From Escherichia coli (lineage in GTDB: Bacteria > Pseudomonadota > Gammaproteobacteria > Enterobacterales > Enterobacteriaceae), in assembly GCF_024502345.1 (NCBI RefSeq), contig NZ_JALDNN010000001.1: DNA of 64,000 nt; one strand, written 5' to 3'. How positions within the stretch are numbered: the first letter of the stretch is position 1; each line of letters opens with the position of its first letter. Below, one piece after another: positions 745-53,625 of this stretch. The position numbers were made by a program, and so were the translations under genes. The notes under the pieces are model-generated. The model was not told the DNA's origin and did not search any database. It was given only the letters and a program-made list of their open reading frames with translations.

Positions 745-927
745 GATAATACTCCTGACAAGGTGACTGGACTTCCAGTAACGAACTAATAACAGCGCAT
801 AGTGTAAGAGGGAACGCGGCGACTGGCTTAACTATTCACATGAATTAAACTAATCAAAAACCGCGATTTAACTAATATTGCGATGATTGTCTCAAGTAGT
901 GTTTTGTAGATGTAAAGATAAGTATAG

Positions 928-1506: not shown

Positions 1507-1509
1507 GTC

Positions 1510-2871: not shown

Positions 2872-2944
2872 CAGTCCTGACTCTACTGGCTATGTGCCGG
2901 GTAGCATGAAATAATTAGCGCCAACAATTTAGCAGGAGTTAACA

Positions 2945-3124
2945 ATGTTTGCAGGTTTACCTTCACTCACCCATGAACAGCAGCAAAAAGCTGTCGAGCG
3001 GATCCAGGAACTGATGGCACAAGGGATGAGCAGCGGCCAGGCAATCGCGCTGGTGGCAGAAGAGCTGCGTGCCAACCACTCCGGCGAGCGAATCGTGGCG
3101 CGTTTTGAGGATGAAGACGAGTAA
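2945..3124 (+). CDS. yoaH: UPF0181 small protein, 59 aa
   Basis: ATG at 2945, translation [59 protein letters not shown]; below ORF-track length cutoff. Confidence 0.8.
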
Positions 3125-3182
3125 CACACTAATCCGTATCGATTTCGTTATAGAAGCCGATGATCATTTGATTGTGAGAAAA

Positions 3183-3215
3183 AGGACGCTTTTTATATGT
3201 GATTAAAAGCGTCCT
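3183..3215. terminator. bidirectional stem-loop between convergent yoaH and yoaC
   Basis: aggacgcttttt ... aaaagcgtcct inverted repeat flanked by A/T runs. Confidence 0.5.
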
Positions 3216-3302
3216 GACCCATTTATGCTGATATAAATTTAACTCAGACCAGTGCTTTTAGTTCTTCCTGCATATATGTTGAAAAGTATTCAGGATTTTT
3301 AA

Positions 3303-3602
3303 TCACAGAACGTTCACCTGTCTCCATTTTTTTGCCCATCCAACCATTTTTTCCGTGAACCCAGGGTTCCAGCCTTCCTGGTCAGCTCGCGCCGTAATAT
3401 CAGCGGCACTCGCGGGTACTCCCAGTTCTTTTAAATATTTAAAGATTCCCTTCGCCGTGCTTTCATTCATCGAACTTGGTGTTGGCGCTGATACATCCAT
3501 GGCACCAATGAAATCCAGGGCTTTATCTATTACAGCAGGCATATTCTTATCCTTAAAATTAACCATGTTATCGATAAGGCTATATATGACCTTAATTTGC
3601 AT
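3303..3602 (-). CDS. yoaC: DUF1889 family protein
   Basis: 99-aa ORF; conserved position. Confidence 0.78.
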   Translation of the reverse strand: MQIKVIYSLIDNMVNFKDKNMPAVIDKALDFIGAMDVSAPTPSSMNESTAKGIFKYLKELGVPASAADITARADQEGWNPGFTEKMVGWAKKWRQVNVL

Positions 3603-3963
3603 CTAATATCAAAGGGATTATAACGATATGGCACGAGTTAACCTGTTGACATTCAGGTGTTTTAAAAGTAGCAGCTCATGGTGTGTTATCCAGTAAGATG
3701 GAGAAAATTAACTGTCAGTCCGCACGCTATAACCAGATTGTTCAGCTAAGAAAGAAAACCAGAGTTGCTAATCAAAGGGCGAACACAACGGCATGTTTAT
3801 GTTTATTTATATAGTTAGTTTTATAGATAAAATTGAAATTATAAATATAAATAATGAATTAGCAGAAGCATCAACAGTAATATCTTATTCTCTGGTCGAT
3901 TTATGTAAAACCGACCAGTATTATCGATAAATTATCGTCTGACTTATTTTGCTTCGATAAAGC

Positions 3964-4308
3964 TTACACCGCAGCCACAATCTTAATTTCAACTTTATAC
4001 TTCGGGTTCATCAAACCCGCTTGTACCGTGCAGCGCACCGGCGCATGACCCGCGACAACCCAGGCATCCCACGCTTTATTCATCGCCGCGAAGTCGTTTT
4101 TATCGGCCAGGAAAATGGTGGCATCCAGAATACTCGATTTATTGCTGCCCTGTTTTTCCAGCACGGCGTCAATCTGAGCCAGCGTGTTGGCGGTTTGCTC
4201 AAAGGCATCGGCGTCGAGGTTTTCCGGTACACCAGTGTAGTAGAGCGTGTTGTTGTGGATTACTACATCAGACCAGCGGGCTTCAGCATCGATACGAACG
4301 ATAGTCAT
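3964..4308 (-). CDS. yoaB: RidA/YjgF family protein
   Basis: ORF trimmed to second ATG (MTIVRIDAEARW...), 114 aa; GAGGA 7 nt upstream. Confidence 0.85.
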   Translation of the reverse strand: MTIVRIDAEARWSDVVIHNNTLYYTGVPENLDADAFEQTANTLAQIDAVLEKQGSNKSSILDATIFLADKNDFAAMNKAWDAWVVAGHAPVRCTVQAGLMNPKYKVEIKIVAAV

Positions 4309-4439
4309 CATTTTGTCCTCATTATCCTTCCATTTTCGTGCTGCAAAGACTGCCACAATGTGAGGTCGCCGTCACCACTTCAACTGGCGAAAGCGCCCTC
4401 ATCCTGACATAATCCCTGTTCAAATCAACAGGGGGTAGT

Positions 4440-7142: not shown

Positions 7143-7724
7143 ATGGCGGTTCAAAAGAATGTTATCAAAGGCATACTGGCAGGTACGTTTGCGCTAATGC
7201 TGAGCGGTTGTGTCACTGTGCCGGACGCCATTAAAGGCAGCAGTCCCACGCCGCAACAAGATTTAGTTCGGGTGATGAGTGCGCCGCAGCTGTACGTTGG
7301 TCAGGAGGCACGCTTTGGTGGCAAAGTGGTTGCGGTACAAAACCAGCAAGGGAAAACCCGCCTGGAAATTGCTACCGTACCGCTGGACAGCGGAGCCAGA
7401 CCGACGCTGGGAGAACCTTCTCGCGGTCGCATTTATGCCGATGTGAACGGTTTTCTGGACCCGGTGGATTTCCGTGGACAACTGGTTACGGTAGTCGGGC
7501 CAATCACTGGTGCGGTTGACGGCAAAATCGGCAATACGCCCTATAAATTTATGGTGATGCAAGTAACGGGTTACAAACGTTGGCATTTAACCCAGCAGGT
7601 GATTATGCCGCCTCAGCCGATTGATCCATGGTTTTATGGCGGTCGTGGCTGGCCCTATGGCTACGGCGGATGGGGCTGGTATAATCCCGGCCCCGCGAGA
7701 GTACAAACAGTTGTAACTGAATAA
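7143..7724 (+). CDS. yeaY: Slp-family outer membrane lipoprotein
   Basis: 193-aa ORF with lipobox LSGC. Confidence 0.85.
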
Positions 7725-7752
7725 TTGCTTGTTTTTAAAGAAAAAGAAACAG

Positions 7753-7770
7753 CGGCTGGTCCGCTGTTTC
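7753..7770 (+). promoter_or_regulatory. putative FadR operator (distal) within hairpin downstream of yeaY
   Basis: gctggtccgctgtttc resembles FadR consensus ANCTGGTCNGACNTGTT; also forms stem gaaacagcgg/ccgctgtttc. Confidence 0.4.
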
Positions 7771-7839
7771 TGCATTCTTACGGTAAAGATAAAAATAAAT
7801 AGTGACGCGCTTCGCAACCTTTTCGTTGGGTAATTATCA

Positions 7840-7856
7840 AGCTGGTATGATGAGTT
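7840..7856 (+). promoter_or_regulatory. putative FadR operator (proximal) in fadD promoter
   Basis: agctggtatgatgagtt, about 75 bp upstream of fadD start. Confidence 0.45.
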
Positions 7857-7928
7857 AATATTATGTTAACGGCATGTATATCATTTGGGGTTGCGATGAC
7901 GACGAACACGCATTTTAGAGGTGAAGAA

Positions 7929-9614
7929 TTGAAGAAGGTTTGGCTTAACCGTTATCCCGCGGACGTTCCGACGGAGATCAACCCTGACCGTTATCAATCT
8001 CTGGTAGATATGTTTGAGCAGTCGGTCGCGCGCTACGCCGATCAGCCTGCGTTTGTGAATATGGGGGAGGTGATGACCTTCCGCAAGCTGGAAGAACGCA
8101 GTCGCGCGTTTGCCGCTTATTTGCAACAAGGGTTGGGGCTGAAGAAAGGCGATCGCGTTGCGTTGATGATGCCTAATTTATTGCAATATCCGGTGGCGCT
8201 GTTTGGCATTTTGCGTGCCGGGATGATCGTCGTAAACGTTAACCCGTTGTATACCCCGCGTGAGCTTGAGCATCAGCTTAACGATAGCGGCGCATCGGCG
8301 ATTGTTATCGTGTCTAACTTTGCTCACACACTGGAAAAAGTGGTTGATAAAACCGCCGTTCAGCACGTAATTCTGACCCGTATGGGCGATCAGCTATCTA
8401 CGGCAAAAGGCACGGTAGTCAATTTCGTTGTTAAATACATCAAGCGTTTGGTGCCGAAATACCATCTGCCAGATGCCATTTCATTTCGTAGCGCACTGCA
8501 TAACGGCTACCGGATGCAGTACGTCAAACCCGAACTGGTGCCGGAAGATTTAGCCTTCCTGCAATACACCGGCGGCACCACAGGTGTGGCGAAAGGCGCG
8601 ATGCTGACTCACCGCAATATGCTGGCGAACCTGGAACAGGTCAACGCCACCTATGGGCCGTTGCTGCATCCAGGTAAAGAACTGGTAGTAACGGCACTGC
8701 CGCTGTATCACATTTTTGCCCTGACCATTAACTGCCTGCTGTTTATCGAACTGGGTGGGCAGAACCTGCTTATCACTAACCCGCGCGATATTCCAGGGTT
8801 GGTAAAAGAGTTAGCGAAATATCCGTTTACCGCTATCACTGGCGTTAACACCTTGTTCAATGCGTTGCTGAACAATAAAGAGTTCCAGCAGCTGGATTTC
8901 TCCAGTCTGCATCTTTCCGCAGGCGGTGGGATGCCAGTGCAGCAAGTGGTGGCAGAGCGTTGGGTGAAACTAACAGGACAGTATCTGCTGGAAGGCTATG
9001 GCCTTACCGAGTGTGCGCCGCTGGTCAGCGTTAACCCATATGATATTGATTATCATAGTGGTAGCATCGGTTTGCCGGTGCCGTCGACGGAAGCCAAACT
9101 GGTGGATGATGATGATAATGAAGTACCACCGGGTCAACCGGGTGAGCTTTGTGTCAAAGGACCGCAGGTGATGCTGGGTTACTGGCAGCGTCCCGATGCT
9201 ACAGATGAGATCATCAAAAATGGCTGGTTACACACCGGCGACATCGCGGTAATGGACGAAGAAGGTTTCTTACGCATCGTCGATCGCAAAAAAGACATGA
9301 TTCTGGTTTCCGGTTTTAACGTCTATCCAAACGAGATTGAAGATGTCGTCATGCAGCATCCTGGCGTACAGGAAGTCGCGGCTGTTGGCGTACCTTCCGG
9401 CTCCAGTGGTGAAGCGGTAAAAATCTTTGTAGTGAAAAAAGATCCATCGCTTACCGAAGAGTCACTGGTGACTTTTTGCCGCCGTCAGCTCACGGGCTAC
9501 AAAGTACCGAAGCTGGTGGAGTTTCGTGATGAGTTACCGAAATCTAACGTCGGAAAAATTTTGCGACGAGAATTACGTGACGAAGCGCGCGGCAAAGTGG
9601 ACAATAAAGCCTGA
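7929..9614 (+). CDS. fadD: long-chain fatty acid CoA ligase
   Basis: 561 aa from TTG at 7929 ([14 protein letters not shown]...); AMP-binding motif [11 protein letters not shown]; ORF-track start at 7863 is a 22-codon upstream extension. Confidence 0.92.
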
Positions 9615-36794: not shown

Positions 36795-36910
36795 TAATTG
36801 TCGCGAAACTGTCTGGATTGTGAGCAAAGGCGCAGGAATTCAGAGACTCTCACTTATCACTTCACGGAATGAGGGTTACCATACCCGGATTGCATTGACA
36901 GGAGATGTCC

Positions 36911-37954
36911 ATGAGCGAGAACTCGATTCGTTTGACCCAATACAGCCACGGAGCTGGTTGCGGCTGTAAAATTTCCCCAAAAGTGTTGGAAACCATCCTG
37001 CACAGTGAGCAGGCGAAGTTTGTTGATCCGAATTTGCTTGTGGGTAATGAAACCCGCGACGATGCGGCGGTGTACGATCTGGGCAATGGCACCAGCGTTA
37101 TCAGTACCACCGACTTCTTTATGCCGATCGTTGATAATCCTTTCGATTTTGGCCGCATTGCGGCGACTAACGCCATCAGCGATATCTTCGCGATGGGGGG
37201 CAAACCGATTATGGCGATTGCGATCCTCGGCTGGCCGATTAACAAACTTTCCCCAGAAATTGCCCGCGAAGTAACCGAAGGTGGACGCTATGCATGCCGT
37301 CAGGCGGGTATTGCGCTGGCTGGCGGTCACTCCATCGATGCGCCGGAGCCGATTTTTGGTCTGGCGGTAACGGGGATCGTACCGACCGAGCGGGTGAAGA
37401 AAAACAGTACCGCACAAGCCGGATGCAAACTGTTCCTGACGAAACCGCTGGGGATCGGCGTTCTTACCACGGCTGAGAAAAAATCACTGTTGAAACCAGA
37501 ACATCAGGGACTGGCGACGGAAGTGATGTGCCGGATGAACATCGCAGGTGCGTCCTTTGCCAACATCGAAGGCGTAAAAGCGATGACCGACGTTACTGGT
37601 TTTGGTCTGCTGGGCCATTTGAGCGAAATGTGTCAGGGCGCAGGTGTGCAGGCGCGCGTTGACTATGACGCGATCCCAAAATTGCCGGGGGTTGAAGAGT
37701 ACATTAAGTTGGGCGCAGTGCCTGGCGGCACCGAACGTAACTTTGCCAGCTACGGTCATCTGATGGGTGAAATGCCGCGTGAAGTGCGCGATTTGCTGTG
37801 CGATCCGCAAACTTCTGGCGGTTTGCTGCTGGCGGTCATGCCGGAAGCAGAAAATGAGGTTAAAGCTACAGCCGCCGAGTTTGGCATTGAACTGACGGCG
37901 ATTGGCGAACTGGTGCCAGCGCGCGGCGGTCGTGCCATGGTTGAGATCCGTTAA
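36911..37954 (+). CDS. selD: selenide, water dikinase
   Basis: 347 aa from [20 protein letters not shown]... Confidence 0.95.
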
Positions 37955-40047: not shown

Positions 40048-41036
40048 ATGAAAAAAGTTTTATTACAAAACCATCCTGGGAGCGAGAAGTATTCTTTTAA
40101 TGGCTGGGAAATATTTAATAGTAATTTTGAACGGATGATTAAAGAAAATAAGGCCATGCTGCTTTGTAAGTGGGGGGGGGGTATTTAACATGTGTTGTCG
40201 CTGTAATGTTTGTATTCGCAGCGATAACATCCAACGGTTTGAATGAAAGAGGCCTGATTACCGCGGGATGCTCATTTCTTTATCTATTAATTATGATGGG
40301 GCTTATTGTTCGGGCCGGTTTTAAAGCAAAAAAAGAACAGCTGCATTATTATCAGGCTAAAGGTATTGAGCCGCTCAGTATCGAGAAATTACAGGCGCTA
40401 CAATTGATCACACCTTATCGATTCTATCATAAGCAATGGTCTGAAACGCTGGAGTTCTGGCCGCGAAAGCCTGAACCTGGCAAAGATACCTTCCAATATC
40501 ATGTGCTTCCTTTTTACTCGATCGATATCATAAGTAAAAGACGCGAGTCTTTAGAGGATCAATGGGGTATCGAAGATAGCGAAAGTTATTGTGCCTTAAT
40601 GGAGCATTTTCTTTCTGGCGACCATGGAGCCAATACCTTTAAAGCAAACATGGAGGAAGCCCCAGAGCAGGTTATCGCCTTGTTGAATAAATTTGCTGTT
40701 TTTCCCTCTGACTATATCTCTGATTGCGCTAATCATAGCTCCGGTAAATCCTCGGCGAAGCTAATATGGGCGGCGGAATTATCATGGATGACCTCGATAT
40801 CAAGCACAGCTTTTCAAAACGGGACAATTGAAGAAGAACTGGCCTGGCATTATATAATGCTTGCTTCTCGAAAGGCGCACGAGTTGTTCGAAAGCGAAGA
40901 AGATTATCAAAAAAATAGTCTAATGGGATTTCTTTACTGGCATATCTGCTGCTATCGCAGAAAGTTAACGGATGCTGAACTTGAAGCGTGTTATCGTTAC
41001 GACAAGCAGTTTTGGGTGATGCTGCCAACTTACTGA
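40048..41036 (+). pseudogene. ynjI: DUF1266 inner membrane protein gene, disrupted twice (poly-G frameshift and IS1 insertion near 3-prime end)
   Basis: Frame from ATG 40048 (MKKVLLQNHPGSEKYS...CKW) stops at 40188; downstream ORF 40170..41036 is in a different frame; the two join in-frame if the G10 run were G8 or G11; last 6 codons lie inside the IS1 inverted repeat. Confidence 0.75.
40172..40181 (+). repeat. G10 homopolymer tract inside ynjI
   Basis: Ten consecutive G read directly at 40172..40181. Confidence 0.95.
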
Positions 41037-43561: not shown

Positions 43562-43834
43562 GTGAGTCGAGCATTGTTCGCCGTAGTATTAGCATTTCCA
43601 TTAATTGCACTGGCTAACCCGCATTATCGTCCGGACGTGGAGGTAAACGTACCGCCAGAAGTGTTCAGTTCAGGCGGGCAATCAGCGCAGCCCTGTACTC
43701 AGTGCTGCGTTTATCAGGATAAAAATTATTCTGAAGGGGCGGTAATTAAAGCCGAAGGAATACTGCTGCAATGCCAGCGGGATGACAAAACCCTTAGCAC
43801 TAATCCGCTGGTCTGGCGGCGCGTAAAGCCATAA
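43562..43834 (+). CDS. ynjH: DUF1496 secreted protein
   Basis: 90-aa ORF with signal peptide. Confidence 0.8.
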   Translation: MSRALFAVVLAFPLIALANPHYRPDVEVNVPPEVFSSGGQSAQPCTQCCVYQDKNYSEGAVIKAEGILLQCQRDDKTLSTNPLVWRRVKP

Positions 43835-44207
43835 ACGCCTCTAATAATGGAATGTCAGCAGGAGCCAGCGGATATTGCAGCGCCTCTTCAGGTGAGCACC
43901 AGACCAGCGCCTGATGTTCATGTGCCTGTAACGTCCCGTGGAAGTCGGGTACGTGCCAGGCATGAAGATGGATAATCCGCCCCGAAACTTCTCGCTGATG
44001 GCTGGCAACATACTCACCCACAGTTGCTTCGATGCCCAGTTCTTCGCGTAACTCACGCACCAGCGCCTGCCGCTGGCTTTCATCCAGCTCGACTTTACCA
44101 CCGGCAAACTCCCATAATCCCGCCTGATCGCTCTGGGCGGGGCGTTGCGCGAGTAAAATTTTGCCATCACGTTCAATGAGGGCGGCAACAACTTCAATCA
44201 TTTTCAT
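43800..44207 (-). CDS. nudG: Nudix CTP/8-oxo-dGTP pyrophosphohydrolase
   Basis: 135-aa ORF; Nudix box GGKVELDESQRQALVRELREELG. Confidence 0.9.
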   Translation of the reverse strand: MKMIEVVAALIERDGKILLAQRPAQSDQAGLWEFAGGKVELDESQRQALVRELREELGIEATVGEYVASHQREVSGRIIHLHAWHVPDFHGTLQAHEHQALVWCSPEEALQYPLAPADIPLLEAFMALRAARPAD

Positions 44208-44293
44208 AAATTACACACGGGCAGATAAGCGAAAAATGCCATAATATCCGCACTGTTGCTCAATCAGAAAGGCTTTATATTTAAGGAGTGCCT

Positions 44294-44914
44294 GTGCTAG
44301 ACCGCCATCTTCATCCCCGGATTAAACCGTTGTTGCATCAGTGCGTGCGGGTTCTTGATAAACCGGGCATTACGCCAGATGGTTTAACATTAGTGGGATT
44401 TGCCATCGGCGTGCTGGCTCTGCCGTTTCTGGCTCTGGGCTGGTATCTGGCGGCGCTAGTCGTCATTTTGTTGAATCGTCTGCTTGATGGTCTGGATGGC
44501 GCACTGGCGCGGCGCAGAGGGCTTACCGACGCGGGCGGATTTCTCGATATTTCTCTCGATTTTCTCTTTTACGCGCTGGTGCCGTTTGGTTTTATTCTTG
44601 CTGCACCGGAGCAAAATGCGCTGGCAGGCGGCTGGCTGCTGTTTGCGTTTATCGGTACGGGCAGCAGTTTTCTCGCTTTTGCTGCGCTGGCGGCGAAACA
44701 TCAGATTGATAATCCCGGTTATGCGCATAAATCGTTTTATTATCTGGGGGGATTAACCGAAGGCACAGAAACGATCTTACTGTTTGTGCTGGGATGTTTA
44801 TTCCCTGCATGGTTTGCGTGGTTTGCGTGGATCTTCGGTGCGTTGTGCTGGATGACGACCTTTACGCGGGTGTGGAGTGGGTATCTGACGCTGAAGTCGT
44901 TCCAGCGTCAGTAA
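44294..44914 (+). CDS. ynjF: CDP-alcohol phosphatidyltransferase family membrane protein
   Basis: 206 aa from second GTG (AAGGAG 5 nt upstream); DG(x)2AR motif in LDGLDGALARRRG. Confidence 0.85.
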   Translation: MLDRHLHPRIKPLLHQCVRVLDKPGITPDGLTLVGFAIGVLALPFLALGWYLAALVVILLNRLLDGLDGALARRRGLTDAGGFLDISLDFLFYALVPFGFILAAPEQNALAGGWLLFAFIGTGSSFLAFAALAAKHQIDNPGYAHKSFYYLGGLTEGTETILLFVLGCLFPAWFAWFAWIFGALCWMTTFTRVWSGYLTLKSFQRQ

Positions 44915-44922
44915 TTGCAATG

Positions 44923-46230
44923 TTATTTGCTGCTGTCCGGGCCGCGTTCACCGGTTGCTACCGGATTTTTGGGATCGCTGCTCCATTCGTACCAGCCGCC
45001 GTCGTAAACGGAGACGTTATTCCAGCCCATTGCTCGTGCGTACATAAAGGTTTCGGACGCGCGCCAGCCGGTGCCGCAGTAGAATGAAACTTGCTGATCT
45101 GGTTTGATATTCCATGCTTTCCACATAGCGGTAATATCATCGGCGCTACGCATGGTGCCATCGGGGTTATGGAAATCTTCCATATGCGTCGAGTCGCTAC
45201 CAGCGTGTCCCCAACGTGCTCCGGCTATTTCACCTTTTGGTTTAATATAACTGTAACCGCTGGTCGTACCGATAAATTCTGGCCACGAACGAATGCTCAC
45301 CAGCGATGCATCCTGGCGATGCAGCAGTCCACGGGCCTGTTCCATATCGAGCATCAACTGCGGTTGCGCCGGGATCTTCACGCCGAAATCCGGTTCCGCT
45401 TTCACTTTCGGTGGCGTTCCGCGCTCAACAGGCAGTCCCGCGTCGGACCAGGTTTGCCAGCCGCCATCCAGCAGGCGCACATCTTTCACGCCAGCATAAA
45501 GCATAATCTGCGCCACACGCGCTGCAGCATATACGTCACGCCCGTACAGAATGACCGTGGTGTCATGGCGAATGCCGTGTTTTGCCAGCATCGCTTTTAG
45601 TTGTTCATCAGAAACTTTGTTCCACAGCGGTTCGCTTTCCACTTCGTTGGTATCGATGTAGTCAGCGCCAGGAATATGGCTGATAAGGTAAAGCTTAGGA
45701 GCGCCCCAGGCCGCTTCAATGACTTTCCAGTCTCCGGCAGGTTTCGCCGTAACCTCTTTACCTTGTTGCAGGTCGTGCAGCCATTGCGGATAAACCAGCT
45801 GCTCAAAGTGCGGCAGTTTTTGTAGACGGGAAGGTTCGCTTAGCGCGTCACTCAGAATGGAGATATGCGTAAAACCTGCTTTTTGCAGTCGCGTTTTGAC
45901 GGCGTCGACATCTTTGCCATTACCGTATAGCGCCACCGGGGCATCGGCTTTCAGGTTATGTTGCTTGATCCACGCGTTTAGCTGTTCGGTGCTCATTTTG
46001 TCAAGCCAGCTAGCAGAGAGGTTTAAGGCGGCAGGTTCATGACCAGAAGGGCCATTTAAGGTTTGTGGCCAGCCGTTATAAAACGCGCTGGGGCGAGTAT
46101 CTATCGCTTTGCCATTTTGTTGTTGAAGCTGGTCAAGTGTAAGAGGCTTCGCCAGTTCAGCGGCCCACGAAGAAGCGCAAGCCAGCCCTAAAGCCATTGC
46201 CAGCGCGGTCATTTGAGAAACACGTTTCAT
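44923..46230 (-). CDS. ynjE: periplasmic thiosulfate sulfurtransferase with three rhodanese domains
   Basis: 435 aa from MKRVSQMTALAMALGLACASSWAAE (signal peptide); active-site loop CGTGWR. Confidence 0.88.
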   Translation of the reverse strand: MKRVSQMTALAMALGLACASSWAAELAKPLTLDQLQQQNGKAIDTRPSAFYNGWPQTLNGPSGHEPAALNLSASWLDKMSTEQLNAWIKQHNLKADAPVALYGNGKDVDAVKTRLQKAGFTHISILSDALSEPSRLQKLPHFEQLVYPQWLHDLQQGKEVTAKPAGDWKVIEAAWGAPKLYLISHIPGADYIDTNEVESEPLWNKVSDEQLKAMLAKHGIRHDTTVILYGRDVYAAARVAQIMLYAGVKDVRLLDGGWQTWSDAGLPVERGTPPKVKAEPDFGVKIPAQPQLMLDMEQARGLLHRQDASLVSIRSWPEFIGTTSGYSYIKPKGEIAGARWGHAGSDSTHMEDFHNPDGTMRSADDITAMWKAWNIKPDQQVSFYCGTGWRASETFMYARAMGWNNVSVYDGGWYEWSSDPKNPVATGERGPDSSK

Positions 46231-46296
46231 CGAAAATCCCGACATTGTAGTTTTGAGTGCGCCATTCTGAACTGACGCATTGGGAAAAACTTTGCG

Positions 46297-46950
46297 TTAT
46301 CGCAGTTTGTTGTAATTTTCTGACCACTGAGCCATATCCAGAACAGAACTATCAGCAGGAACATCCTGGAGATCGTGCGTTACCTGAACGACGGGGAGCG
46401 CCAGTTCGCGAACTTCGCTGAACACCCACTGGCGAAAATTATCGCGCAGAGCCACATCAAGACGGCTGAATGGCTCATCCAGTAGCAACGCTTTTGGCTG
46501 AGCGAGAAGGGCGCGAAGCAGAGCAACGCGCGCTCGCTGACCGCCAGACAAAGTGGCAGGATCCTGATGGAAAGCTCCGTCAAGGCCTGAACGCTCAAGT
46601 GCATCATTCACGGCATTACGTCGGGCATTCCCCTTAAGTGTCGCCGGTAGCGCCAGCAGTAAATTTTGCCCGACACTGAACTGGTCAAATAACAGTACAT
46701 CCTGGAAAAGAATGCCAATATGACGCTGTGCGGTGGGTAGCATGTCAATCCGTTGCTCATTGAGCCATAGCTCACCTGTACAAGAAAACTGTCCAGCCAG
46801 TGCACCAATCATCCATGAAAACAGAGTGGATTTTCCACAGCCAGACGGACCCATTAACGTGACAATGTCACCTTTATCCACCGTAAAGTTAACGTTTGTC
46901 AGCAAGCGGCTTTCTGGTAAACGTAGCGAAACATTTTTCACGCAGAGCAT
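46297..46950 (-). CDS. ynjD: ABC transporter ATP-binding protein
   Basis: 217 aa from MLCVKNVSLRL...; Walker A GPSGCGKST; start overlaps ynjC stop by 1 nt. Confidence 0.85.
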   Translation of the reverse strand: MLCVKNVSLRLPESRLLTNVNFTVDKGDIVTLMGPSGCGKSTLFSWMIGALAGQFSCTGELWLNEQRIDMLPTAQRHIGILFQDVLLFDQFSVGQNLLLALPATLKGNARRNAVNDALERSGLDGAFHQDPATLSGGQRARVALLRALLAQPKALLLDEPFSRLDVALRDNFRQWVFSEVRELALPVVQVTHDLQDVPADSSVLDMAQWSENYNKLR

Positions 46951-48485
46951 TAGCGGAGTCCTTGTCTGACATAACCTACCCATTTTGCGACTAACGCGGT
47001 CAGGGCAAAAATAGTAAGCGGTAATAGCAGTTGCCATAAAGCCTGGGCGGCGAGAATACCGTTGCTGCCGCCGCTGCTTAATGCCACCGCCTCAGTGGTG
47101 AGCGTCGGAAAACGCCCCGCGCCCAGCCACAGCGTCGGCATATACTGCGCAATACTGACTGAAAATCCCACCGCGAAGGCAATCAGCGTAGGGCGTAGCA
47201 TAAGCGGACATTTCACGTAAAAGAAGATTTTGGCCCGCGACCAGCCCAGTGTTTGTGCAATCAAAATTAACCGTGAATCAATGCGCTGCCAGGCGGGTTG
47301 CAGGATAAACAGCATCCACGGCATTACCCACAGCAGATGCCCCCAGACCACCGCCGTCCAGCTTCCATCCATGTTCAGCCATAGCGCCAGCGTGTACTGG
47401 CCCGCCACCAGCTGCAGTGCCGGTAATAAAATGGGCAACCATAGCCACAACTGGCGACGCTGTGGCCCCCATTCCAGCCACAGCAGTAACAGGAGCCAAG
47501 CGATGAATGTCGCCACCAGCCCCATTGTCAGGCTGTTGATGAGCGCTTCACTATTGATCGTCGACTGATCCGCGAGGATCGCCAGCAGAACCACACACAG
47601 CACACCGGTCAAGGGTAAAAAACTCGCCAGCGTAATGCCTGGCAATAAAGGCGTGGCAGGCTTACGAACGCCATCTACGCGGGGAATAGTACGCCGCCAG
47701 GTACACCATAGCAGATAGCCCAGCAAAACGTAGGCGGCGAGTAACAACATCAGCAGCAGGCTGGCGAGTGCGCCTTTCGTTTGTTGATCGGCGTCGCCCT
47801 GAGTTAACCACTGCCAGCTAATTACTGCCAGCGTCGGTGGATTACCTGGCCCAAGAATAATCGCCACATCCACGACCGACAGCGACCAGGCAACAATCGC
47901 CAGCATCGCCATTGCCAGCGCAGGCGCGACGGAGGGCAACAGCAGCCAGTTCAGGCATTGCCAGCGGCTGTAGCCCAGCGAATCCAGCACGATGACTTGC
48001 TGTAAAAGCCGTTTTTCACTCAATACCGCTGCTAAGATCCACAGCAGAAATGCGCTTTCTTTCACCGCCAGCGTGAAGCCCAGCCCAATACCCAATTTGT
48101 CCATTGGCGGAGTGAAATACGGGAAATAGTCATAAAGCAGCCCTCCGTCAGCAAAGAGCAGAAGGGCGCTGGTGGCAAAAGCCACATGGGGAATGGCGAG
48201 CAGCCACGGCAGACGGGTGCACATACGCTGCCATTTCGGCCCAGGCCACAGCGCCACAATCACCAGCAGGGCAATCAACAACGCCCCGACCGCCGCGATG
48301 GTTGTCGACACCAGCGTTGCCAGTAATGCCTGCGGTAACTGTGGATCGGCAAATAACGCCTGCCAGTGTGTCAACGACAAAGCAGGCGATATCAGCGTGA
48401 GAGCTGCCGGGATCAGCGGTGCATAAATCACCGCCACCATCGCCCACAGCAAAAAGATTAATGCGTACCGTAACGGTGTAGCCAT
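46950..48485 (-). CDS. ynjC: ABC transporter permease (fused two-domain)
   Basis: 511 aa from MATPLRYALIFLLW... Confidence 0.85.
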   Translation of the reverse strand: MATPLRYALIFLLWAMVAVIYAPLIPAALTLISPALSLTHWQALFADPQLPQALLATLVSTTIAAVGALLIALLVIVALWPGPKWQRMCTRLPWLLAIPHVAFATSALLLFADGGLLYDYFPYFTPPMDKLGIGLGFTLAVKESAFLLWILAAVLSEKRLLQQVIVLDSLGYSRWQCLNWLLLPSVAPALAMAMLAIVAWSLSVVDVAIILGPGNPPTLAVISWQWLTQGDADQQTKGALASLLLMLLLAAYVLLGYLLWCTWRRTIPRVDGVRKPATPLLPGITLASFLPLTGVLCVVLLAILADQSTINSEALINSLTMGLVATFIAWLLLLLWLEWGPQRRQLWLWLPILLPALQLVAGQYTLALWLNMDGSWTAVVWGHLLWVMPWMLFILQPAWQRIDSRLILIAQTLGWSRAKIFFYVKCPLMLRPTLIAFAVGFSVSIAQYMPTLWLGAGRFPTLTTEAVALSSGGSNGILAAQALWQLLLPLTIFALTALVAKWVGYVRQGLR

Positions 48486-49624
48486 TCTTGTTCCAGCGCA
48501 TTTACCCAACCTGCGTGCGGTTCAGCCAGTACCGGCGGCAGATCTTGCGGCATTCTTGATTGCAATGTTTCGCGCTGCCCATCAGGCAGTTTTTGCGGAT
48601 CGAGAACAGAAGGATCGCCCCAGACAGCGGGATCTGCTTTACGCAATTGCGCATCGGGTGAGAGCAAGAAATTGGCAACTACCTTCGCCGCAGCACTGGC
48701 ATTCGCGTTGGCAGGAATGGTGACGAAATGCACGTTGCCAATCGTCCCCTCGCGAAAGCCAAAACTGTAACTGCTTGCAGGCAAATCGCCGCTGGCGATT
48801 TTTTGCTGCGCATGCGCGGGGTTAAAGGTCAGCGACAGGCGCAATGTGCCGGCTTTCAGCAGAGCATCCATCCGCGCGGGCGAAGGCGGGAAATCCTTTC
48901 CTTCGCGCCACAAATACGGATGCAGCGCATCAAGATATTGCCACAAGGGAGCAGTGACGCGGGCGAAAGTCGCATCGTCCGGCGCTTCTTTTAATGCGGC
49001 GGGATCGGCCGTCAGCATAATCAGCAACTGTTCAAGAAACGCCGTGCCGGTAAAGTCCGGTGGGCGCGGATAGGTAACCGTGCCGGGATTGGCTTTAGCA
49101 AACTCCAGTAAGGCTTGCGGCGTTTGTGGTGGCTGTGGCGTAACATCGCGGCGGGCGATAAATGTCAGTTGTGCGCCCCCCCAGGGCGATTCAGCCCCTT
49201 CTGTAGGCACTGAAAAATCTTCCCGCACCGGCAGCTGTGTGTCGACATAGCGCCAGTTGGGCAGAGTCTCTGCCCAGTCGGTTTGCAGTAAATTGGCCTC
49301 TTTTAAGGTGCGGAAGTTTTCGCCGTTCACCCAGAGTAGATCCACCGAGCCGCCCGTTTTACGTCCGGCTGCGGCTTCGGTCTGAATGCGCTTCACCGCG
49401 TCTGCGGCATCCGCCAGACGGACAATCTTCAGGTTTATAGCGTAATGGGTTTTCATCTCGCCGCTCACCCAGTCGAGATAGCGGTTAATTGCGGTATCGC
49501 CGCCCCAGGCGTTAAACCAGACGGTTTGCCCTTTGGCCTCATTTTTAATTTCTTGCCAGTCACTGGCATATGTTGCCAGAGAAAACAGCGATAACAATCC
49601 CAGCAACCACCCACAATGGCGCAT
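48458..49624 (-). CDS. ynjB: ABC transporter periplasmic substrate-binding protein
   Basis: 388 aa, signal peptide. Confidence 0.85.
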   Translation of the reverse strand: MRHCGWLLGLLSLFSLATYASDWQEIKNEAKGQTVWFNAWGGDTAINRYLDWVSGEMKTHYAINLKIVRLADAADAVKRIQTEAAAGRKTGGSVDLLWVNGENFRTLKEANLLQTDWAETLPNWRYVDTQLPVREDFSVPTEGAESPWGGAQLTFIARRDVTPQPPQTPQALLEFAKANPGTVTYPRPPDFTGTAFLEQLLIMLTADPAALKEAPDDATFARVTAPLWQYLDALHPYLWREGKDFPPSPARMDALLKAGTLRLSLTFNPAHAQQKIASGDLPASSYSFGFREGTIGNVHFVTIPANANASAAAKVVANFLLSPDAQLRKADPAVWGDPSVLDPQKLPDGQRETLQSRMPQDLPPVLAEPHAGWVNALEQEWLHRYGTH

Positions 49625-49633
49625 CATCTCTCC

Positions 49634-50182
49634 TTAAGAACGTTTTTCCGGAATACGGCACAGTCCCTGAGCGGGAATGTCCATGGCAGAATTAAAACGA
49701 GCCGACAGGTTTTGCAGGCCGATCAATGCCGTCAGTTCGGTGAGCGCCTGAGCGTCAAAATGCGCAGCCAGTCGGGTACGCAGGGCATCATCGACCGTTG
49801 GCGGCGTTACGCTTGCGGCTTCGGCGTACTCCAGCGCCAGCCGTTCTTCATCGCTAAAGAGCGGGCTTTGCCGCCAGTCAGCCACTGCCAGCAGTTTATC
49901 GCTGCTGCCGGTGCGCTCGGCGACTTTCATACTGGTGATATCCACACAAAACTCACACAGGCACATTTGCGCAATGCGCGCGCTGACAAGCGATCGTACT
50001 ACCGGATCGAGCGGTGAGCGTTTGCGCTCCAGCCAGCCAACAAACATCGACACCAGATAAAAGATAAACGGGATCCGCCCCCACCAGCGAATGGGGCTTA
50101 GCACCTCGCCGTAATGGCGACGATGCAGCCACGCCTGCGGACGTAAAATGAAAGGAATTTTGCTAAGCGGCGGTAAACCCAT
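49634..50182 (-). CDS. ynjA: carboxymuconolactone decarboxylase / AhpD-like family protein
   Basis: 182-aa ORF; start overlaps ydjZ stop by 1 nt. Confidence 0.85.
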   Translation of the reverse strand: MGLPPLSKIPFILRPQAWLHRRHYGEVLSPIRWWGRIPFIFYLVSMFVGWLERKRSPLDPVVRSLVSARIAQMCLCEFCVDITSMKVAERTGSSDKLLAVADWRQSPLFSDEERLALEYAEAASVTPPTVDDALRTRLAAHFDAQALTELTALIGLQNLSARFNSAMDIPAQGLCRIPEKRS

Positions 50183-50889
50183 CAGGCATTCCTCTTCTGG
50201 CGCTCAAGCCATATTTTCTTCGCCATAAAAATCACCACGGTCAGGGCAAACAGAATAAACAGTCCGGTGACAAACCAGAAGGTACCGCCTGTTAACATGC
50301 TGCCCGCCCAGGAATAAACAATAGTCGCCGGTAACTGACCAAGCCCGGTGGCGATAAAAAACGAGCGAAAACGTATTGAAGTCAAACCGGCAGCATAGCT
50401 GATTGGATCGAAAGGGACAAAAGGCAATAACCGACAGACCAGGATGGTGTGTTTGCCGTAGCGAGTGAAAAAGCCGTCCATACTGTCAAGTACGGTTTTG
50501 CCGGTTAATTTTTCCACCACTTCGCGGCCCATCACTCTGGCGATAAAAAAGCACAGTGCCGCGCCGGCCATCGAACTGGTCCACGACAGCAAGCCGCCCC
50601 AGAACGCGCCAAACAGCGACGCATTGGCAAAGGTGATCAAAAACGCAGGTAGCGGTGCAGCAATGGCCTGTAAAATCATCAACAAGAACGAGACAACTGC
50701 CGCCAGTGCGCCGTAAGACTGAATAAAGCGTTCTATACCCTGTTGGTCCACGGCGGCAAACGCCGCAACGCTGCGATTGATAAACTCATGGACGCCGGGA
50801 AGCAGCGCCCATGCCAGCAGCATAGCGAACAACAGGATGATGAGGGTTATACGGTAGTACCAGATTTTACGCGATTGCATCTTCATCAT
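50182..50889 (-). CDS. ydjZ: TVP38/TMEM64 (DedA-related) inner membrane protein
   Basis: 235-aa ORF. Confidence 0.85.
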   Translation of the reverse strand: MMKMQSRKIWYYRITLIILLFAMLLAWALLPGVHEFINRSVAAFAAVDQQGIERFIQSYGALAAVVSFLLMILQAIAAPLPAFLITFANASLFGAFWGGLLSWTSSMAGAALCFFIARVMGREVVEKLTGKTVLDSMDGFFTRYGKHTILVCRLLPFVPFDPISYAAGLTSIRFRSFFIATGLGQLPATIVYSWAGSMLTGGTFWFVTGLFILFALTVVIFMAKKIWLERQKRNA

Positions 50890-50903
50890 CCTTTATCCTG
50901 GCT

Positions 50904-51581
50904 TTATTCGGTGATTTTAAAGGTAACCGTTGCCAGCGTGTTATCCGCCGGGAGAACCGAGGCATTGCCTTTGAATTTAACTTCACCTCGTTTTTCAACC
51001 GCACCATAAGTGTATGTTGCATTGCTGACGATGCCGACCGGGCAGCTATCCAGACACACCAGGCAACCCGTTTTCTTCTCTTCTGCTGCCGTTAAATTAC
51101 CGCCAAAGCGCATGTCCAGTTTCTTGCCATTACTGTCAACAATCACTTCATCGAAGGAATACGTTTTTGCCGCCCCTTGCCAGTTGACCGAAATATCCAG
51201 TTTGCTGCCCGTGACATGAGTCGTTTCTTTATTATCCATCGTCATGTTTTCGCCCGGCGTACCACCTGCCTCTTTCAGGGCTTCATAAAATGCTTTCGGG
51301 GTCGCATAACCCATAAACAGCGATTTATGTCCGTTGGAGCCATCTTTAAACACAATACCGTGACGAGTGTCGTCGGTGAGGAAACGACCATTAATTTGCA
51401 CCAGCATGGTTACCGTATGGTTATTGGCATCGACGCGCAGCGGTTGGCTGTTCGAAAGTCCGTCGTATTCCACTTTTGCCGCCGTATTCTCTTTTTGATC
51501 GCAGCCGCTAAGCCCAGCAACAGCCAGTAAGCAGAGTGCAGTCAGTCCTTTTTTCCATGACACTGAATAATGTTGCAACAT
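50904..51581 (-). CDS. ydjY: putative lipoprotein with C-terminal Cys cluster
   Basis: 225 aa from MLQHYSVSWKKG... (AAGGA upstream); lipobox LSGC. Confidence 0.8.
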   Translation of the reverse strand: MLQHYSVSWKKGLTALCLLAVAGLSGCDQKENTAAKVEYDGLSNSQPLRVDANNHTVTMLVQINGRFLTDDTRHGIVFKDGSNGHKSLFMGYATPKAFYEALKEAGGTPGENMTMDNKETTHVTGSKLDISVNWQGAAKTYSFDEVIVDSNGKKLDMRFGGNLTAAEEKKTGCLVCLDSCPVGIVSNATYTYGAVEKRGEVKFKGNASVLPADNTLATVTFKITE

Positions 51582-51585
51582 CGTT

Positions 51586-52295
51586 CTATCCTTCATTTTT
51601 TGGGTGAGTAAGTGGGTTGCGGCGCGAAGCAGACAGATCCACATGTTTGTGTCGGGCGTAGAGTTTGGCGAGCTGGACGAGAATAAACAGCGCCAGGCCC
51701 GCCAGACAGAGTTGTAAAATAAAGCGCAGCGTAATGCCTTCATTGGCGAGATCGCTTGCCATCACGGTATAAATAACAATACCGGGCAGGGTCGTGAGTG
51801 CCGAAATAAGGGTATAAGGCCAGAAGGCGATTGTGGTTAATCCGTAAGCGTAATTTTGAATATTGTAAGGAAACAACGGGATTAAGCGGGTCAGAATAAG
51901 AAAATCAATACCGTTACGCGCGATGCCTTTTTCAATGGCCTGGAAGGTATGGCTATGGCCAACGTATTTCAGCAGTAAATCACGTCCCAGCCAGCGCGCC
52001 AGCAGGAATGAGCACGAGGAGGCCAGCGTGGCGGCAATTAATGAGAGTAGTGTTCCTAAGAGCGGCCAAAAACTATTCCTCCAGCGATCACCAGTATGCT
52101 TCCTGGTAACAGAAAGAGGGTGGCAATGATGAATAACAGAATATAGAGGCTATAACCGAACAATCCGCTCTGGCGGATGAGTGTCTGTAAGTGGGGTAAA
52201 TCGGTGAGCAGATCGAATAAACCGAAAGCGTGGATAGCGTAAATGACCAGCGCAAAAATAAGACAGGCAAAAAGAAATTTACGCTCAGCGTTCAT
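51586..52295 (-). pseudogene. ydjX: TVP38/TMEM64 family membrane protein gene with -1 frameshift
   Basis: N-terminal frame (MNAERKFLFA...GGIVFGRS*) stops at 52056; C-terminal frame continues PLLGTLLSLIAATLASS... to 51586; locus is 710 nt, one short of a multiple of 3. Confidence 0.75.
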
Positions 52296-52461
52296 CGTGG
52301 AGTTTCCTATATCAAACTTGATAATAGAGAAGTGGTCAGACAACTAAAAACGCAGAGACGGTATAACAAAGGACGGCAGGCAACAAATCATTACTGACAG
52401 TTTGTTGATTTTTCTCAAGGTTAATTCTCCTGACCCAGTTTGAGCCAGGAGAGCTGTTAAA

Positions 52462-53268
52462 TTAGCGGCGGAAGGTCGCCCAGACGGGGGCGTGATCGGA
52501 CGGTTTTTCCATGCTGCGGATTTCATAGTCGATGCCGGTTTCTACGCAACATTCTGCCAGCGGTTGGCTGGCGAGCAGCAGGTCGATGCGCAGACCACGG
52601 TTATCGTCAAAACCTTTTGAGCGGTAATCAAACCATGAGAAACGATCTGCTGTTTGCGGATTCGCATGGCGGAAGGTATCGACCAACCCCCAGCTCATCA
52701 GCCTGTCCATCCATTCGCGCTCTTCCGGCAGGAAAGAGCATTTACCGGTACGCAGCCAGCGCTTACGGTTTTCTTCGCCAATGCCAATATCCAGGTCGCC
52801 AGGACTGATATTCATATCGCCCATAATCAGCACCGGATTTTCACGCTTGAGTTCGGTTTCCAGGTAGTTTTGCAGATTCTGATAAAACTGCGCTTTTGCC
52901 GGGAATTTTATCGGATGGTCGCGGCTTTCACCCTGCGGGAAGTAACCGTTGATCACGGTGACATTGCCCAGCGGCGAGGGGATTTCCGCCATAATAATCC
53001 GCCGCTGCGCCTCTTCGTCGTCACCGGGAAAGCCGCGACGCACGGCAATCGGCGTCTCTTTGGTCAGCAGCGCCACGCCATAATGGCCTTTCTGCCCGTG
53101 ATAAAACACGTTGTAGCCGAGCTTCGCCACCTCTTCGAGCGGAAACATATCGTCATGAACTTTTGTCTCCTGCAGGCCAATCACATCCGGTTGGTGCTTT
53201 TCGACGATGGCTTTAAGCTGGTGGGGCCTGGCGCGCAGGCCGTTGATATTAAAAGAGACAAATTTCAT
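52462..53268 (-). CDS. xthA: exodeoxyribonuclease III
   Basis: 268 aa from [18 protein letters not shown]... Confidence 0.95.
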
Positions 53269-53625
53269 AGTCGCTGCCATTTATTCAGATAAAGAGTGCG
53301 TGGATGGTAGCAGAATTTCGCTTTGCTTACCGCCTGTTGTTAAGTGATTTGATCGATGGTTGTTAATGATGTCAACGATGGCGCAAAAAATGCCCGCTTT
53401 TGGTGCGAGCTGCGTCAGAATGGCGCAGTAATTTCCAGTAAATTTCGTCAATGATCACAATTCCAGAATTATATTTTACTTCTGCATAACATTGCGTTTT
53501 TTATTCTTTTTATTCACTCACATCGCAAACGTATTCACTTAATATGCACTTTAAATGTATATGGTTTGGTTATAACTCCTTGATTTCCAGTTAGCCTCCG
53601 CGGTTTATGCACTTTCATCACTGGC

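Follow-up and report, generated by a model that had tools for sequence, protein, structure and literature searches.

Within a 64,000-nucleotide stretch of Escherichia coli DNA (contig NZ_JALDNN010000001.1 of RefSeq assembly GCF_024502345.1, hereafter the window), positions 44923-52295 hold eight co-directional minus-strand genes, ydjX-ydjY-ydjZ-ynjA-ynjB-ynjC-ynjD and then ynjE, which encode two DedA membrane proteins, a cysteine-bearing lipoprotein, an AhpD-like protein, the components of an ATP-binding cassette (ABC) importer and a three-domain rhodanese. Five loci from a distant phylum bring such genes together again, which is hard to explain unless YnjE-type rhodaneses, DedA proteins and YnjB-type importers are coupled in function. 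We tentatively favour a reading in which the locus is an FNR-induced, anaerobic thiol relay of the cell envelope that handles a chalcogen, combined with the import of a polar compound; as the relayed chalcogen, selenium appears somewhat more likely than sulfane sulfur.

These genes are among the remaining function-unknown set of the best-studied bacterium, and YnjE itself has a crystal structure and no physiological substrate. The locus is already catalogued and near-universal in E. coli, and the belonging-together of its genes is not a new idea. A megablast search found the region 44200-52600 in 5,424 of 5,426 complete E. coli genomes, with at least 80% of the query covered by one place in 5,383 and an identity of 95-99% in 5,334. 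The RefSeq annotation of the best match (99.2%) gives an identical gene list from ydjX to ynjE, flanked by xthA on one side and by ynjF (convergent), nudG, ynjH and gdhA on the other. As no genome exceeds this 99.2%, the strain behind the window is absent from the collection, and may be a Shigella or an atypical E. coli. Gene order, orientation and products are the same as in E. coli K-12 ydjXYZ-ynjABCD and ynjE (b1750-b1757), from which the window copy differs by a 1-nt deletion that breaks ydjX.

Gene neighbourhoods and co-regulation

The linkage of ynjE to the transporter genes was followed through 80 genomic loci with YnjB homologues (46-96% identity), collected by a scan with an alignment of 11 YnjB sequences. 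Neighbourhood counts rest on tblastn with the window proteins; clustering of open reading frames (ORFs) gave shadow ORFs in high-GC loci. The ynjE gene follows ynjD in all 21 enterobacterial loci with enough sequence, from genera that include Escherichia, Citrobacter, Kluyvera, Lelliottia, Enterobacter, Pluralibacter, Cedecea, Shimwellia and Buttiauxella, and was found in none of the 42 non-enteric proteobacterial ynjBCD loci (Comamonadaceae, Vibrio, Rhizobiales, Deefgea, Propionivibrio, Desulfosediminicola and others). The association on which the original prediction was built is clade-specific within Proteobacteria: it holds throughout the enterobacterial loci, fails in the other proteobacterial ones and reappears in Firmicutes. 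Directly after ynjD, on the same strand, 33 of the 42 non-enteric loci carry instead a ynjF homologue (40-63% identity), with gaps of -19 to +116 nt and many overlaps of 1-4 nt, whereas in Enterobacteriaceae ynjE sits between ynjD and an inverted ynjF. The ynjC gene is syntenic after ynjB in 60 loci. Among the YnjB-homologue loci, ydjY occurs only in Escherichia and in one Citrobacter locus. The arrangement in the other enterics is ydjX-ydjZ-ynjBCD, and their ynjA-like gene lies elsewhere.

The Firmicute loci (L091 and L172-L175; loci are cited by number) were reached by other routes, L172-L175 via the rhodanese, with Catonella and Lacrimispora as named relatives, and L091 (locus L088/L091) from YdjY homologues. 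In all five, an extracytoplasmic YnjE homologue with the identical CGTGWR active-site loop is co-directional with a YnjB-family binding protein, permeases and a YnjD-like ATPase. The YnjE homologues of L172-L175 are lipoproteins, 37-39% identical to YnjE over its residues ~104-430, and the rhodanese of L088/L091 is 38% identical to YnjE, with the same loop. The Firmicute binding proteins are 34-38% identical to YnjB, the L172 copy scoring 470 bits against the NF008633 cut-off of 203. These clusters also hold YdjZ homologues (52-58% identity) and a YdjX-type DedA protein, L173 being without DedA and without the CCG protein; the core of L172-L175 further includes, between them, a second lipoprotein rhodanese, an HdrD-like Fe-S/CCG protein, a TIGR04282/TIGR04283 fusion and a kinase. 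Likewise, L088/L091 encodes YdjY, YdjZ-type and YdjX-type DedA proteins, Fe-S and CCG proteins, a TIGR04282-TIGR04283 fusion above both cut-offs, an APH-type kinase, and permeases and an ATPase alongside a YnjB homologue (35% identity, E 7e-63). In L091, L173 and L174 the last gene of the cluster encodes a RihA-like nucleoside hydrolase. We regard the rhodanese, the DedA proteins and the importer as functionally coupled because all five Firmicute loci cluster these genes.

In about 20 of 58 non-enteric ynjB loci, the DedA protein is fused to a pyridine-nucleotide-disulfide oxidoreductase (716-757 aa) that carries the motifs CLNYGC and His-x5-Glu (the His-Glu of the Lpd/GR type) and is without the C-terminal Cys pair of MerA. 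Because of these motifs the fused flavoprotein is read as a disulfide reductase and not as a metal reductase; MerA-type metal reduction is rejected for it. In Desulfarculus, DedA is fused to an HdrD-like (CCG) module, and in Vibrio mexicanus a rhodanese, a GltD/YgfK-like flavoprotein and a CCG protein precede DedA and ynjB. TIGR04282/TIGR04283 proteins above cut-off and a kinase adjoin ynjBCD-ynjF in eight Comamonadaceae loci. SelD, again above cut-off, lies beside ynjBCD-ynjF in L036, L050, L067, L080 and L084, and a TIGR03169 oxidoreductase ('N-terminal to SelD') is found in 10 loci. The window has its own selD (NF002098, 619 bits) 7 kb beyond ynjE, the interval being occupied by ynjF, nudG, ynjH, gdhA, a ynjI-like ORF and topB.

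A metagenome scan with YdjY returned mostly E. coli contigs, and about 13 of 80 loci were informative. YdjY adjoins a YdjZ-type DedA gene in 19 of 20 distant loci. At L163 the gene order is TIGR04283, TIGR04282, an ArsS radical-SAM (seleno)protein (437 bits, cut-off 300), YdjY and DedA, with YdjY and ArsS overlapping by 4 nt.

Expression data couple the E. coli genes as well. According to Myers et al. (2013; PMC3688515), who combined chromatin immunoprecipitation sequencing (ChIP-seq) with RNA sequencing, FNR directly activates both ydjXYZ-ynjABCD and ynjE, from separate sites at -60.5 and -41.5, respectively. Upstream of ydjX, the coding strand carries an FNR-box-like site, TTGAGaaaaATCAA, with one mismatch to TTGAT-N4-ATCAA; matches with up to two mismatches are not enriched across the window (45 found, 34 expected), and this candidate gains weight only because of the published ChIP site at -60.5. 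No FNR box with up to two mismatches was found in the 66-nt gap between ynjD and ynjE, where a promoter scan located a sigma-70-like promoter, TTCAGA-16-TACAAT. Because of this promoter and of its own published FNR site, ynjE is a transcription unit separate from ydjXYZ-ynjABCD. By independent-component analysis, Sastry et al. (2021) identified an uncharacterised, anaerobically active iModulon made up of ydjXYZ-ynjABCD, yedEF, yjiLM and ynjE, which they proposed to relate to molybdenum and selenium usage. In E. coli O157, ydjY and ynjE are induced together with ydfZ and ynfE.

Several further features of the related loci concern single proteins. In the Firmicute clusters a hydrophobic protein of ~145 aa, with no Pfam or NCBIfam match and no E. 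coli counterpart, always follows the YnjE-type rhodanese (L172 10113-10547; L173 10213-10659; L174 10226-10675; L175 10180-10611; L091 6352-6591). In Campylobacterota-like and Desulfarculus loci, a protein of 126-154 aa with no family match sits between YdjY and DedA (L002 8649-9029; L006 8666-9130; L089 7656-8051; L171 10686-11078), the L089 and L171 copies being 80% identical. Beside YdjY, the small protein and DedA, the Campylobacterota-like contig of L089 also carries, at 1-4394, genes for a two-component system and for a Psr/Phs-like molybdopterin oxidoreductase with Molybdopterin, NrfD and 4Fe-4S subunits. In a Hydrogenophaga locus (L078), the region directly upstream of ynjB (7415-9578) encodes a maturase of the MNIO family for bufferin-type ribosomally synthesized and post-translationally modified peptides (BufB, 306 bits, just short of its cut-off of 310) together with a copper-binding partner that resembles HvfX. 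The DedA-reductase fusion of L055 (7821-9957) and the ynjC-type permeases of L086 (11068-12769) and L091 (12638-14121) are apparently split into several ORFs, which suggests frameshifts, due either to pseudogenes or to assembly errors.

Proteins encoded by the locus

The tightly packed, co-directional arrangement described in the original prediction was recovered for all eight minus-strand genes, as were the overlaps at several junctions: 1 nt for ydjZ-ynjA, 28 nt for ynjB-ynjC and 1 nt for ynjC-ynjD. The remaining junctions are gaps of 4 nt (ydjX-ydjY), 14 nt (ydjY-ydjZ), 9 nt (ynjA-ynjB) and 66 nt (ynjD-ynjE). Pfam and NCBIfam likewise bore out its family assignments, namely two VTT/DedA proteins, a Cys-bearing lipoprotein, an AhpD-like YnjA, a binding protein, an ATPase and a YnjE with three rhodanese domains. 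A seven-gene cluster with ynjE downstream was correct as to order; the separate transcription of ynjE from its own promoter and a frameshift in ydjX were both missed.

This frameshift results from a 1-nt deletion (CCC to CC) at 52064-52065, seen in alignment with ydjX of E. coli GF3-3, and leads to a premature TAG at 52056-52058 after 79 codons, so that the reading frame is split into 52056-52343 and 51586-51876. The deletion was found in no other complete E. coli genome (5,426 covered; a 61-nt probe spanning the site had matches in 2,263 of them, never without a gap), and the lesion is therefore either a strain-private pseudogene or a sequencing error. The intact ydjX orthologue matches VTT_dom with 89.6 bits, and YdjZ does so with 87 bits; the motif AALCFFxAR marks the YdjZ subtype. 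No function has been assigned to COG0398 DedA proteins, of which YdjZ is the exemplar and some of which are fused to pyridine-nucleotide-disulfide oxidoreductases (PMC10127716). A report by Ledgham (2005), as cited in PMC10127716, links a DedA protein to selenite resistance. Assignment of YdjX and YdjZ as undecaprenyl-phosphate flippases of the UptA type (COG0586 DedA) was rejected on matches of 27.6 and 36.4 bits, the cut-off being 250.

YdjY is a 'YdjY domain' lipoprotein with the lipobox LSGC and three further Cys residues. An alignment across phyla shows 52% mean column identity and invariant C173, C176, C180, R73 and H74. Its structure model is confident and is without a solved structural relative; a sequence search of the PDB with YdjY, and one with YnjB, gave no relatives, and we found no functional literature on ydjY or ynjF. 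YnjA belongs to the Pfam family CMD (36.5 bits, cut-off 23) and has a C-E-F-C (CxxC) motif in its translation. Its best NCBIfam match, at 101 bits and under cut-off, is a YciW-related (seleno)protein family, and its PDB relatives are AhpD/CMD proteins and the debrominase Bmp8.

In YnjE, Pfam recognizes Rhodanese in three stretches (117.7 bits), and the six-residue loop CGTGWR (C-x-x-G-x-R) lies in the C-terminal domain of the translation. The N-terminus, MKRVSQMTALAMALGLACASSWA, contains a signal-like hydrophobic segment whose end reads SWA-AE; the literature takes YnjE to be periplasmic (PMC10215317). It matches its own PDB structures 3ipo/2wlr over residues 20-435 (E 1e-287), in constructs that begin at residue 20 or 23. 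The next-closest solved relatives are the 460-aa 'Sulfurtransferase' chains 6ktv/6h98 (E 1e-88, residues 33-427), which are presumably the ergothioneine synthase EanB. If so, they are cytoplasmic C-S bond-forming enzymes, from which YnjE differs by its apparent signal peptide and its gene context. YnjE and its relatives also match ExtH (NCBIfam NF040901) weakly, with 40-50 bits, far under the cut-off of 200; ExtH, the rhodanese of a Geobacter selenite/tellurite reduction operon, is an extracytoplasmic rhodanese carrier, as YnjE would be. Sud, which acts with polysulfide reductase, is a periplasmic rhodanese that delivers a chalcogen. Unlike the Sud and ExtH systems, the window encodes no respiratory reductase.

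YnjB belongs to Pfam SBP_bac_8 and to its own NCBIfam subfamily, PRK11622, and qualifies as the periplasmic substrate-binding protein of a binding-protein-dependent ABC importer. A fold search with the YnjB model returned only generic class-II binding proteins for maltose, 2-aminoethylphosphonate, Fe3+, thiamine and polyamines, at 9-17% identity, and for this reason its ligand cannot be assigned; no affinity to known sulfur-oxyanion binders appeared. The putative permease YnjC matches BPD_transp_1 with 19.5 bits, under the gathering score of 26.4, and gives weak NCBIfam matches to the permeases PhnU2, ModB and CysT; these matches and its synteny in 60 loci speak for a permease of this type. 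The ATPase YnjD (ABC_tran, 103.7 bits) shows Walker A GPSGCGKS, the signature LSGGQ and Walker B LLLDEP in its translation, and its best NCBIfam matches, all under cut-offs, are the PhnT2, sulfate, ThiQ and PotA ATPases. YnjBCD, termed an 'ABC-type uncharacterized transport system' in the literature, has the architecture of the ThiBPQ, PhnS2T2U2 and FbpABC importer types, with a binding protein of class II, a 12-helix fused permease and a short ATPase, but all its family scores are under cut-off and its identity to characterised binding proteins does not exceed 17%. A riboswitch search of the window and 13 related loci gave no pointer to a ligand; its single match, an S-adenosylhomocysteine riboswitch 3 kb away in L037, is probably unrelated. 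YnjF matches CDP-OH_P_transf (43 bits, Pfam), with the motif D-G-x2-A-R-x8-G-x3-D-x3-D intact (DGLDGALARRRGLTDAGGFLDISLD). Its nearest families are archaetidylinositol-phosphate and phosphatidylinositol-phosphate synthases, under cut-offs, the best being archaetidylinositol-phosphate synthase (63 bits against 180).

A possible chalcogen relay and its alternatives

From gene content, domain families, published co-regulation and the conservation of neighbourhoods across phyla, we infer the following transport and chemical steps, including the element and the class of ligand. In the periplasm, YnjE would carry the element as a persulfide or perselenide on the catalytic Cys of its CGTGWR loop, and the lipoprotein YdjY would hold it on the CxxCxxxC triad. 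The COG0398 DedA proteins YdjZ, the fixed partner of YdjY, and YdjX could form the membrane conduit. At the cytoplasmic face, the CxxC protein YnjA may reduce the S-S or S-Se bond and free sulfide or selenide, for example to SelD, a role that would fall in other bacteria to the fused Lpd/GR-type flavoprotein disulfide reductase or to the HdrD-like Fe-S/CCG protein. YnjBCD is predicted to import a polar organic compound of the same pathway, which in most other bacteria would pass to YnjF and/or to the kinase and the TIGR04282/TIGR04283 transferases. The gene contents are consistent with a common theme, thiol/disulfide chemistry to either side of a membrane-borne DedA protein: rhodaneses and a Cys-triad lipoprotein on the outside, and on the inside a CxxC protein, a flavoprotein disulfide reductase or an HdrD-like protein, to which are added an ABC importer and enzymes for the activation or transfer of a sugar- or alcohol-like group. 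We lean to selenium because of the SelD neighbours, the co-regulation with yedEF and the anaerobic selenium demand of E. coli; further hints are the TIGR03169 oxidoreductase, the selD of the window, the weak ExtH matches of YnjE and the DedA protein linked to selenite resistance. The periplasmic module for sulfur compounds, as originally proposed, is supported in part: the coupling of its genes holds, as seen in the FNR and iModulon data and in the five Firmicute loci, but a role in sulfur handling in particular is not established, and the neighbouring SelD genes and yedEF make selenium no less probable.

Such a relay would share its logic with the mer system, in which the periplasmic Cys protein MerP, the membrane protein MerT and the flavoprotein reductase MerA form a thiol relay. 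Both would place a Cys protein outside the cytoplasm, a small conduit in the membrane and, on the cytoplasmic side, a pyridine-nucleotide-disulfide oxidoreductase, DedA-fused in many relatives, but there is no sequence relationship to MerP or MerT, and the E. coli locus uses an AhpD-like protein instead. The sulfur/selenium uptake pairs YedE/YedF and YeeE/YeeD (TsuA/TsuB) likewise combine a membrane protein with a small sulfur-carrier protein, and yedEF is co-regulated with the cluster; however, the families are unrelated (Sulf_transp/TusA as opposed to DedA/rhodanese/YdjY) and yedEF lies outside the window. The locus touches on the question of how E. coli takes up trace selenium for its anaerobic formate dehydrogenases. 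The network of YnjE-type rhodanese, YdjY, DedA, disulfide reductase, YnjB-type importer, YnjF, TIGR04282, TIGR04283 and SelD makes the functions of YnjE, YdjY and COG0398 DedA proteins directly testable. In the literature searched we found no paper describing this neighbourhood network, which is not proof of its being unpublished.

A number of observations weigh against the relay. Purified YnjE acts poorly with thiosulfate and 3-mercaptopyruvate and has no apparent thiosulfate:glutathione activity, and ynjE in strain RHOD-8K brought only a small gain in cellular sulfane sulfur (PMC10215317). Elsewhere YnjE is labelled a molybdopterin-synthase sulfurtransferase, a cytoplasmic role (PMC3688515), and other authors regard COG0398 DedA proteins as lipid scramblases tied to aerobic metabolism (PMC10127716). 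No experiment ties any of these genes to selenium or sulfur uptake. The '(seleno)protein' in NCBIfam names means that some members use selenocysteine in place of Cys and is not evidence of a selenium substrate. SelD adjacency is confined to 5 of the 58 non-enteric loci, all from Burkholderiales and so not independent, ynjE is missing from the 42 non-enteric proteobacterial ynjBCD loci, and in the fold search YnjB did not group with the sulfate/thiosulfate binding proteins Sbp/CysP. The frameshift in ydjX, if it is real, shows that the system is dispensable in this strain. Finally, a simple chalcogen relay gives no mechanistic role for YnjBCD and YnjF.

A wider and rather doubtful version of the relay regards ydjXYZ-ynjABCD, ynjE and ynjF as the enterobacterial remnant of a widespread pathway in which extracytoplasmic rhodaneses and YdjY hand selenium (or sulfane sulfur) to DedA for reductive import towards SelD, with the YnjB-type importer, YnjF and TIGR04282/TIGR04283 building or salvaging a chalcogen-containing sugar or lipid. 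Were this wider version true, a physiological function would for the first time be given to COG0398 DedA proteins, to YdjY and to YnjE, and the dedicated pathway by which E. coli acquires selenium, long looked for, might be identified.

An unlikely alternative is a lipid head-group module, in which a polar alcohol (polyol, sugar or amino-alcohol) enters through YnjBCD and is joined by YnjF to cytidine diphosphate (CDP)-diacylglycerol, and YdjX and YdjZ scramble the resulting unusual phospholipid to the outer leaflet; YnjE, YdjY and YnjA would be accessory or unrelated, and no chalcogen would be transported. The same-strand position of ynjF directly after ynjD in most non-enteric loci, often with a 1-4 nt overlap, would follow from such a pathway, as would the intact CDP-alcohol motif of YnjF and its nearness to phosphatidylinositol-phosphate synthases. 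Eukaryotic DedA homologues are phospholipid scramblases and COG0398 members have been proposed to be so (PMC10127716), and the APH/choline-kinase-like kinase and nucleotidyltransferase-like TIGR04282 protein of related clusters resemble Kennedy-type head-group activation. However, this scheme leaves unexplained the repeated fusion or adjacency of DedA to disulfide-reductase-type proteins, the two extracytoplasmic rhodaneses and the Cys-triad lipoprotein in the same clusters, and the SelD and ArsS neighbours. In Enterobacteriaceae, moreover, ynjF is inverted and outside the operon, and the Firmicute clusters are without a YnjF homologue.

Decidedly unlikely, in our judgement, is an 'arsenosugar'-type pathway that makes or salvages a riboside with arsenic, selenium or sulfur in organic form. 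Here the importer would take a 5'-modified nucleoside or sugar, the nucleoside hydrolase, APH-type kinase and TIGR04282/TIGR04283 proteins would process it, and the rhodaneses, YdjY, DedA and reductases would supply or detoxify the heteroatom, E. coli keeping uptake and relay only. This reading draws on the TIGR04282 and TIGR04283 proteins above cut-off in the Firmicute clusters and in the eight Comamonadaceae ynjB loci, on the single operon of ArsS, TIGR04282, TIGR04283, YdjY and DedA at L163, and on the RihA-like hydrolase that closes three clusters; a Cys triad is, in addition, a classical As(III) site, for example in ArsR. The ArsS/TIGR04282/TIGR04283 set is thus co-operonic with YdjY-DedA at L163 and stands with YnjB-family importers and YnjE-type rhodaneses in other taxa, yet tblastn found no homologue of ArsS, TIGR04282/TIGR04283, the kinase or the nucleosidase in the 64-kb window, and no ArsS was found within 10 kb of any ynjB locus. 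The name 'arsenosugar' stems from one cyanobacterial enzyme and not from members of these clusters. Both the lipid and the riboside pathway overlap with the favoured relay and may describe other parts of one pathway.

That ynjE serves cytoplasmic sulfur transfer for the molybdenum cofactor and merely lies beside an unrelated FNR-regulated operon is improbable. Its listing as molybdopterin synthase sulfurtransferase (PMC3688515), its own promoter and its absence from all 42 non-enteric proteobacterial ynjBCD loci would agree with coincidence, but YnjE has a signal-like N-terminus and is taken in the literature to be periplasmic (PMC10215317), and chance adjacency does not predict that Firmicute YnjE homologues are lipoproteins inside clusters of YnjB-type importers and YdjZ. 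Very improbable is an importer for thiamine or a similar vitamin, a reading suggested by the JGI name 'putative thiamine transport system substrate-binding protein' for some YnjB homologues, by ThiQ among the better YnjD matches, by the fused 12-helix permease that YnjC has in common with ThiP and by the weak resemblance of the Firmicute-cluster kinase to thiamine kinase, but opposed by scores far under the family cut-offs (YnjD 133 bits against 245 for ThiQ), by the mere 16% identity of the fold neighbour ThiB (2qry) to YnjB, by the lack of a thiamine pyrophosphate riboswitch in the window and the 13 related loci, and by the rhodaneses, DedA proteins and reductases that it leaves unexplained.

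Coordinates and other features of the window

The positions of the genes and regulatory candidates are collected in Table 1.

Table 1. Features of the ydjX-ynjE region, in window coordinates
Feature	Position	Strand	Description
FNR-box-like site	52405..52418	-	upstream of ydjX; 1 mismatch to consensus
ydjX	51586-52295	-	YdjX-type (COG0398/TVP38) DedA membrane protein gene, disrupted
ydjY	50904-51581	-	lipoprotein, invariant C173-x2-C176-x3-C180 triad and R73-H74
ydjZ	50182-50889	-	YdjZ-type DedA membrane protein, conserved YdjY partner
ynjA	49634-50182	-	AhpD-like (carboxymuconolactone decarboxylase family), motif C-L-C-E-F-C
ynjB	48458-49624	-	periplasmic substrate-binding protein of ABC importer
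ynjC	46950-48485	-	fused double permease, 511 aa
ynjD	46297-46950	-	short ABC ATPase, 217 aa
sigma-70-like promoter	46271..46244	-	ynjD-ynjE gap; promoter scan
ynjE	44923-46230	-	three-domain rhodanese, active-site loop CGTGWR
ynjF	44294-44914	+	CDP-alcohol phosphatidyltransferase, convergent with ynjE
selD	36905-37954	+	selenophosphate synthetase; context only

The interval 53383-53494, between xthA and astC, resembles the Salmonella mgtC leader RNA weakly (23 bits, gathering score 48, E 0.87), most likely by chance. A 288-aa ORF at 40170-41036 lies where GC is low (0.40-0.42); its match to PRK11380 (hypothetical protein) starts only at profile position 44 of 353, and it may be N-terminally shortened or mis-started. 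The convergent genes ynjE and ynjF are separated by an 8-nt gap, with a terminator-like hairpin for ynjF inside the end of the ynjE coding region (44951-44964). Similarly, the 3' ends of ynjH (plus strand, DUF1496) and nudG (minus strand, CTP pyrophosphohydrolase) overlap by 35 nt at 43800-43834; both pairs, ynjH/nudG and ynjE/ynjF, are candidate excludons (PMC12288877).

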